Positions 260 to 398 of a stretch of 2,275 nucleotides of DNA are shown piece by piece (position 1 is the stretch's first letter; each line of letters begins with the position of its first letter). A program made the translations under genes and the position numbers. Under the pieces are notes generated by a model. The model saw only the letters and a program-made list of their open reading frames with translations, searched no databases and was not told the DNA's origin. Origin of the DNA: Escherichia coli (GTDB lineage Bacteria > Pseudomonadota > Gammaproteobacteria > Enterobacterales > Enterobacteriaceae); NCBI RefSeq assembly GCF_003334405.1, contig NZ_QOWM01000038.1. The stretch is one strand, 5' to 3'.

Positions 260-272
260 AAATTAACAGCTT

Positions 273-294
273 ATACATGAGTTATATACAGCTT
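273..294 (+). repeat. Degenerate iteron / half-iteron (ATACATGAG...)
   Basis: 8 of the first 9 positions match the iteron 5' half; the 3' half is unrelated. Confidence 0.3.
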
Positions 295-304
295 TATGCA
301 CATC

Positions 305-313
305 ATATCCACA
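305..313 (+). promoter_or_regulatory. DnaA-box-like 9-mer ATATCCACA (8/9 to TTATCCACA)
   Basis: Sequence match only. DnaA boxes flank the iterons in the R6K gamma origin, so the position is plausible. Confidence 0.35.
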
Positions 314-398
314 AGCAAAGCGGATTCGTTTTGAATCCCAAATAGATTTAGGGTGAATCTAAACAAGAACTATGTGCGGGTGAAATTTGATTGCTCTC

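Follow-up and report, generated by a model that had tools for sequence, protein, structure and literature searches.

We analysed a stretch of 2,275 nucleotides from Escherichia coli (assembly GCF_003334405.1, contig NZ_QOWM01000038.1), here called the window, which contains an R6K-like (IncX-type) replication module. It holds an A+T-rich segment, four iterons, a spacer, the operator and promoter of pir, a pir homologue, a small open reading frame (ORF) and the start of a further gene (Table 1). Because the iterons, operator and promoter are arranged as in R6K and the Pir proteins are homologous, the replicon can be identified as R6K-type. The subject of this work is the spacer between the iterons and the pir operator. 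On balance, we consider it to be the accessory host-factor half of an R6K-type (pi/Rep_3, IncX-like) iteron origin, built of three modules: an element at the last iteron, an array of candidate DnaA boxes, and a run of GATT/AATC tetramers phased at 11 bp. An earlier note, made from the sequence of the window alone, had proposed an organised host-factor region rather than filler at this place, with a half-iteron, one DnaA-like box and two short hairpins. All four motifs are present (Table 1) and the spacer has the extent given there. The general proposal agrees with the clustering, the constraint and the positional homology in IncX origins that we describe below, but the box count, the half-iteron and the hairpins had to be read differently.

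The DnaA boxes A, B and C lie on the same strand, with start distances of 12 bp (A to B) and 11 bp (B to C), and a weaker 9-mer, box 0, precedes them. We compared the spacer with 5000 dinucleotide-preserving shuffles of itself. The spacer contains two sites with at most one mismatch to TTATCCACA, against a mean of 0.05 in the shuffles (P = 0.001), and three sites with at most one mismatch to TTATNCACA (P = 0.002). Three same-strand sites within 30 bp occurred in 0/5000 shuffles, and no second such cluster was found in the 31-kb plasmid, despite its 47 sites with at most one mismatch. The earlier note had correctly pointed to box C but had overlooked the boxes starting at 271, 282 and 294, so that its single box is one of three to four.

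The family of the window is represented by seven haplotypes (the window, L029, L035, L036/L048, L038/L039, L040 and L050; L labels denote related loci), and its diverged copies were traced through the Pir protein cluster in draft assemblies and one metagenome. In sister haplotypes box A reads TTATGCACT or TTATACACT, with one mismatch each. Box B varies at position 5 (G/A), with an additional change at position 1 in L036, and nowhere else; box 0 varies at box position 5 alone. Position 5 of box C is C, T, A or G across the haplotypes, and its positions 2–4 and 6–9 are invariant. For the four 9-mers together, 2/28 columns at positions 2–4 and 6–9 are variable, versus 9/11 columns at the N position and the inter-box linkers (Fisher P = 1.3 × 10−5). 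The minimum number of changes is 2 in the box core versus 13 in the N position and linkers (P = 4 × 10−6). Since position 5 of box C takes any base and the rest is fixed, this pattern of variation in the aligned haplotypes is what selection for TTATNCACA should leave behind. The motifs and their variation point to an array that probably comprises three to four candidate DnaA boxes in a non-random cluster.

Table 1. Features of the spacer and of its surroundings in the window.
Feature	Position	Strand	Remarks
Spacer	260–398		139 bp; between iterons and pir operator
Conserved element adjoining last iteron	258–273	+	2/13 columns variable within the family
IHF-like match AATTAACAGCTTA	261–273	+	12/13 to WATCAANNNNTTR
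DnaA-like 9-mer, box 0, TTATACATG	271–279	+	Weak, 2 mismatches to TTATNCACA; 11 bp before box A; overlaps half-iteron
Half-iteron look-alike ATACATGAG	273–281	+	8/9 to AAACATGAG; shuffle P = 0.05
DnaA box A, TTATATACA	282–290	+	1 mismatch to TTATNCACA
DnaA box B, TTATGCACA	294–302	+	Exact TTATNCACA
DnaA box C, ATATCCACA	305–313	+	8/9 to TTATCCACA; 1 mismatch to TTATNCACA
Inverted repeat 1, GGATTC-GTTTT-GAATCC	322–338		Tetramers GATT (323) and AATC (334)
Inverted repeat 2, TAGATT-TAGGGTG-AATCTA	343–361		Tetramers GATT (345) and AATC (356)
Conserved block GCGGGTGAAATTTGATTGCTCTC	376–398		Adjoins operator iteron; contains fifth tetramer, GATT, 389–392, +33 in the 11-bp phase
Degenerate relic of DnaA box, TTGTCTGCC	43–51	+	5/9; relatives carry TTATCCACA or TTGTCCACA there (alignment)
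A+T-rich segment	~81–200		GC 0.25–0.28; also covers first iterons
IHF-like match TTTCAAAATGTTA	140–152	−	12/13; in A+T-rich segment
Four identical 22-bp iterons (AAACATGAGAGGATTTGCCGTT)	170–259	+	Exact copies; left edge of spacer
pir operator/promoter	399–467	+	Right edge of spacer; layout parallels R6K L002
Eighth iteron	399–420		In operator
Inverted half-iterons AAACATGAG	421–429, 445–453	+, −	Bracket the −35
pir −35, TTGATC	440–445
pir −10, TAGAAT	462–467
pir homologue	ends 1335		Followed by 134-aa ORF, then start of DUF2726 gene

We also looked for the DnaA box that relatives carry on the other side of the iterons. A plus-strand TTATCCACA or TTGTCCACA lies about 110–120 bp left of the first iteron core in 10/10 relatives with a left flank. 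The comparison names R6K, IncX1, IncX3, IncX4, IncX5, L004, L005, L007, L008, L045 and L046; the contigs of L006, L009 and L010 end before this region. Left of its iterons, the window has no DnaA site within two mismatches, and only the relic at 43–51 aligns there. The simplest reading of this alignment is that the lineage of the window has lost the left box and carries the right-hand array instead, although any order of this loss and gain is something that we infer. Because the usual left box is gone, the array is probably the sole DnaA entry point of the window family.

The element adjoining the last iteron is the positional homologue of TATCAACAGGTTG in R6K, which contains a perfect match to the integration host factor (IHF) consensus WATCAANNNNTTR. 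We compared the ori regions of R6K, two IncX5, IncX1, IncX3, IncX4, several untyped replicons, Arsenophonus, L008/L037 (Pir 86%) and L009 (Pir 75%), and a related element directly follows the last iteron in all lineages compared (CTATCAACAGGTTG in R6K, CTATTAACAGCTTG in L045, CTATGAACAGATTG in L008 and AAATTAACAGCTTA in the window). Perfect IHF sites occupy the position equivalent to 261–273 in R6K, L007 and L045. On the plus strand, the element reads as a good DnaA box in IncX4 and Arsenophonus (both ATATCCACA) and in L009 (TTATTCACA). Thus, the likeness to the DnaA/IHF sites of R6K that the earlier note had drawn holds, as relatives do carry a DnaA- or IHF-like element at this point. The note had found no convincing IHF consensus. 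It had overlooked the match at 261–273; taken by itself, however, this match carries little weight, as one of at least 12/13 turns up in a third of spacer shuffles (P = 0.33, 5000 shuffles). The other IHF-like match, at 140–152, occupies the position of a perfect IHF consensus in L003, L004, L008, IncX4 and L046.

If the half-iteron and the inverted repeats are taken literally, the former would be an extra pi site, for example for dimer handcuffing or looping to the operator, and the latter would form cruciform or terminator hairpins. The half-iteron match itself (Table 1), borderline against the shuffles, favours this explanation. The WH2 domain of pi contacts the GAG of the iteron (PMC4980987). 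However, position 280 changes from A to T, and GAG thereby becomes GTG, in five of the seven haplotypes, including L050, whose spacer differs from that of the window by this single base; L029 has ATGCATGAG. The CATGAG core of a pi half-site is accordingly not conserved. The conserved bases at 273–281 fit the phased 9-mer TTATACATG better than the iteron.

As to the hairpins, both stems together reach −6.8 kcal/mol as single-stranded DNA (z = −2.5), two inverted repeats with 6-bp arms are borderline against the spacer shuffles (P = 0.07), and a weak terminator-like match lies on the minus strand (338–322). Against this, the arms of inverted repeat 1 are broken in L036 (GAATTC..AAATCA; 3/6 pairs kept) and carry an indel in L008, and no compensatory pair changes were seen in relatives for either repeat. 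The arms of inverted repeat 2 are invariant in the seven haplotypes and thus uninformative on pairing, with 4/7 loop positions variable. Taken as a whole, the spacer is no more structured than expected (z = −0.2 and −0.7), has no Rfam match (E up to 1) and, in the promoter scan, contains nothing promoter-like. We rejected the terminator since its stem is not conserved; for a hairpin or cruciform, too, pairing is not maintained across relatives. The conservation data largely refute the literal explanation, which we regard as very unlikely. The earlier note had named conservation in related replicons as a check on its motifs. By this check the DnaA boxes, within the family, and the tetramers are conserved, but the half-iteron and the hairpin pairing are not, and the inverted repeats, although present, are better read as tetramers in an 11-bp phase.

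The tetramers start at 323, 334, 345, 356 and 389, which is an exact 11-bp lattice (vector strength 5.0/5, P = 0.0007). Only 1/20 of the tetramer columns is variable, versus 25/65 in the remainder of 314–398 (P = 0.005). In L008, the order is GATT, AATC, AATC, AATC and GATT at 11-bp steps; in IncX4 it is four AATC and then GATT at the same steps, that is, direct repeats. Direct repeats in IncX4, together with the broken repeat 1 in L036, favour a phased array over hairpins. Among all 4-mers at periods of 7–12, an unbiased scan ranked the run of AATC at 11 bp first in the window, L008 and IncX4, and that of (A)GATC(T) at 8 bp first in R6K, L005 and L046. Each of the two complete plasmids examined has one run of at least three tetramers, where about 0.02–0.03 are expected, and runs of at least four occurred in 0/300 shuffles. 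Judged from these alignments, the conserved property is phasing on one helix face, not hairpin potential. With rather low confidence, we suggest that the 11-bp GATT/AATC run belongs to a class of cis-elements of IncX origins not described before, present in the IncX4, L008 and window lineages and corresponding to the 8-bp AGATCT/GATC cluster of R6K-like origins; by tethering or shaping the origin, a putative factor bound there would serve stable inheritance. The binder could possibly be the small membrane protein encoded after pir or a host nucleoid protein.

The post-pir ORF (1348–1752) contains hydrophobic segments of membrane-like character; its identity is 95% with the ORF of IncX4 and 60% with that of L008, and it is barely related to Bis of R6K. 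ORF2 type co-varies with the spacer repeat: the lineages with GATT/AATC at 11 bp share a distinct ORF2, and Bis-type lineages have GATC at 8 bp.

A rival explanation treats the inverted repeats, or the phased array, as operators or as an 'stb'-like stability site, bound by a dimeric or filament-forming protein other than DnaA, either a host nucleoid protein such as Fis or one encoded by the backbone. The function of such a site would lie in the control of copy number, in partition or in attachment to the membrane and not in opening, and it is compatible with the DnaA array. We consider this possible, with limited confidence. The two GATT-N7-AATC dyads, 22 bp apart, are the only two in the 31-kb plasmid, which suits an operator, as do the invariant arms and variable loop of repeat 2, the recurrence of the phased motif in IncX4 and L008, and the distinct ORF2 of the array lineages. 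The ORF2 correlation, however, comprises three array lineages and is confounded with the whole backbone. R6K gamma ori carries many Fis sites, and Wu, Levchenko and Filutowicz reportedly found in 1995 that a short segment beside the R6K gamma core confers stable inheritance. By hand, the outer bases of the dyads fit the Fis pattern G-N-T-Y...R-A-N-C, but their centres are poor, TAGGGTG in repeat 2 being G-rich, and Fis is a weak candidate for the identity of the tetramers. In addition, whole-plasmid scans found no second array elsewhere on either plasmid, so nothing points to a plasmid-wide regulator whose operator this would be.

Of all parts of the origin, the spacer varies most, with 29% of columns variable versus 12–13% in the iterons and in the left flank with the A+T-rich region. 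Among relatives, spacers are about 115–140 bp long and cannot be aligned to that of the window, L008 excepted; in the MAFFT alignment with L008 the gap placement is ambiguous, and the homology of the inverted repeats was judged by eye. The search of PLSDB (blastn, E up to 10) returned six identical copies and no nucleotide homologue of the spacer outside its own family, and complete E. coli genomes gave the same six plasmids and nothing diverged. A scan of genome contigs with a degenerate operator pattern gave 0 matches. The iteron-pattern scan of metagenomes gave 24 loci, of which L029 is a real relative; the other 23 (L011–L028 and L030–L034), with a single iteron match each, are probably chance matches or unrelated replicons.

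Rapid evolution, the lack of outside homologues and the shorter spacer of the closest outgroup would be expected if the spacer were neutral filler, with its motifs as chance matches or decaying ancestral relics. However, the substitutions spare the DnaA-box core and the tetramers and concentrate at N positions, linkers and loops, the clusters are absent from shuffles, and the phased array recurs in IncX4, whose spacer is non-alignable. We therefore find neutral filler scarcely credible.

Several points weigh against the three-module explanation that we prefer. The seven haplotypes represent only about three deep lineages, so that the column counts are partly non-independent. In the nearest outgroup, L008/L037, the block with the half-iteron and the DnaA boxes, about 58 bp, is missing altogether, so that Pir of this type does not in general depend on it; L008 keeps the left box. 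For this replicon, the case for the DnaA array is made from sequence. When its pi is a hyperactive variant, R6K can dispense with both DnaA and IHF (PMC5043065), so the role of these proteins may be only facilitatory. The IHF-like match at 261–273 is at chance level and falls to 11/13 in L035, L038 and L040. The GATT/AATC motif was defined post hoc, a concern that the de novo and whole-plasmid scans lessen but do not remove. No known factor can be securely assigned to the tetramers; as weak DnaA sites they match at most 5/9 positions by hand, and this candidate was rejected.

Based on the three-module explanation, the following mechanism may be proposed, in which we infer each binding and mechanistic step from the motifs, their clustering, their constraint and their recurrence at homologous positions. 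The first module (258–273) is the positional counterpart of the IHF- or DnaA-like element that R6K and other IncX origins carry after their last iteron. On the second module (271–313), host DnaA would bind the boxes side by side, co-operatively and on one helix face. Bound DnaA would contact pi on the neighbouring iterons, possibly helped by a bend at 258–273, and would then aid the opening of the A+T-rich region beyond the iterons, the delivery of DnaB-DnaC, or both. This role of DnaA is proposed by analogy with the DnaA boxes described in RK2, P1 and R6K. The third module (322–361 plus 389), which takes the place of the AGATCT/GATC clusters of R6K-like relatives, could serve as a track along which a protein binds to one face of the helix, or as a phased-bend element. 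The DnaA-array part of this scheme is probable; any specific partner of the phased array is much less so.

The identity of the replicon was examined against four features of R6K-type origins. Three are present: a Rep_3 initiator beside ori, 22-bp iterons with an A+T-rich flank, and an autoregulatory operator, the last judged from its sequence. The fourth, DnaA sites bounding the origin on both sides, is absent, as boxes occur on the right-hand side only. The Pir domains PF01051 and PF21205 were found on all homologues, and Pir is 69.7% identical to that of IncX5 and 65.8% to pi of R6K. The start of pir is ambiguous, with in-frame ATGs at 448, 487, 490 and 493, and public annotations give 280–295 amino acids. 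The four iterons of the window are mutually identical, and those of the sister haplotypes L035, L036 and L038 differ at several positions (for example, GAGAGGTTATGCCG and GAGTGAGTATGCCG). This difference suggests that the iterons of the window lineage were recently homogenised.

In PLSDB, the ori and pir of the window occur on just six E. coli plasmids of 30–34 kb, and the Inc type is blank for both records whose typing was read (NZ_CP122596.1 and NZ_LR025103.1). Among draft assemblies, the two commonest Pir sequences are found on 180 and 107 contigs of E. coli or Salmonella. Positions 1325–2275 of the window are 96–99% identical to more than 400 IncX4 plasmids, with a breakpoint near the 3' end of pir, and an IncX4-type backbone lies on both sides of ori-pir (L041 and L047 have the same flanking protein accessions). 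The plasmid is a module swap, in which an IncX4-like backbone is combined with a different ori and pir; its Pir shares about 40% identity with that of IncX4. Between the post-pir ORF and the DUF2726 gene lies a near-perfect, loopless palindrome (1791–1832) with 21-nt arms that are 86% complementary. Such a palindrome may represent an inverted repeat of IncX plasmids that resembles an oriT or a secondary origin.

Taken together, the spacer belongs to a familiar class of elements, the accessory regions for host factors in iteron origins, and is unusual in its layout: the left DnaA box is absent, a tandem array stands on the right, and a phased GATT/AATC track is shared with IncX4. Genes for mcr-1 and carbapenemases are carried to a large extent by IncX plasmids, notably IncX4. 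To our knowledge, nearly all that is known of IncX plasmid replication derives from R6K. In the window family, the DnaA entry point seems to have moved across the iterons, from the side where unwinding takes place to that of pir, and this layout is a natural experiment on the importance of DnaA-box position in pi-type origins. The phased array shared with IncX4 may affect the stability or incompatibility of clinically important plasmids. Current models stand, and the map of a known origin type is refined.

The closest known system is R6K gamma (IncX2). It has a homologous initiator, 22-bp iterons with the same AAACATGAG half, and the same order of A+T-rich region, iterons, a spacer of about 120–140 bp, eighth iteron, and inverted half-iterons around the pir promoter; its last iteron, too, is immediately followed by an element of IHF-consensus or DnaA-like type. 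DnaA sites flank R6K ori-gamma, and its opening needs pi, DnaA and IHF (PMC5043065). However, R6K has seven iterons and the window four, and its spacer, the 'enhancer' region from the seventh iteron to the pir operator, cannot be aligned to that of the window. The better DnaA box of R6K, TTGTCCACA, is left of the A+T-rich region, and its right side has just a 7/9 box overlapping the perfect IHF consensus, whereas the window family has no left box and three to four tandem boxes on the right. Where the window has GATT/AATC at 11 bp, R6K carries repeats of AGATCT/GATC spaced at 8 bp. The spacer of the window family is without GATC, and those of R6K-type relatives have 3–4 GATC at 8-bp spacing. 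Positions 1–520 of the window contain just two GATC, at 95–98 and at 442–445, the latter inside the pir −35. Because the GATC sites differ, Dam or SeqA control may differ from that of R6K-type relatives.

By published layout, P1 oriR and RK2 oriV resemble the window in having grouped DnaA boxes beside the iterons, with the unwinding element on the opposite side. In RK2, the order is DnaA boxes, iterons and DNA unwinding element (DUE), and the DnaA boxes are where the helicase is initially positioned (PMC4980987). Two arrays of DnaA boxes occur in P1, the second DUE-distal with an IHF site nearby (PMC4980987), and P1 functions with DnaA boxes relocated beside the iterons (PMC5043065). The initiators of these plasmids are RepA and TrfA and their sequences are unrelated; P1 has boxes at both ends, whereas the window family has them at one.

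The array also resembles E. coli oriC, with same-orientation 9-mers, linkers of 2–3 bp, a period of 11–12 bp and graded mismatches (2, 1, 0, 1). A 2-bp spacing of oriC DnaA sites is said to have been described by Rozgaja et al. in 2011. In oriC, arrays of low-affinity DnaA sites are anchored by a strong box (PMC4980987). Unlike oriC, the window has four sites and no adjoining DnaA-dependent unwinding element, and firing depends on the plasmid Rep.

Finally, the IncX4 spacer (for example, in NZ_CP023829.1) belongs to the same plasmid backbone and carries an identically oriented ATATCCACAA on the side of the iterons that faces pir, as well as a unique 11-bp-phased GATT/AATC run in its pir-proximal half. 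However, its iterons differ, as does its Pir, it keeps the left DnaA box, its single right-hand box adjoins the last iteron, and its phased motifs are mostly direct repeats, where the window has dyads.

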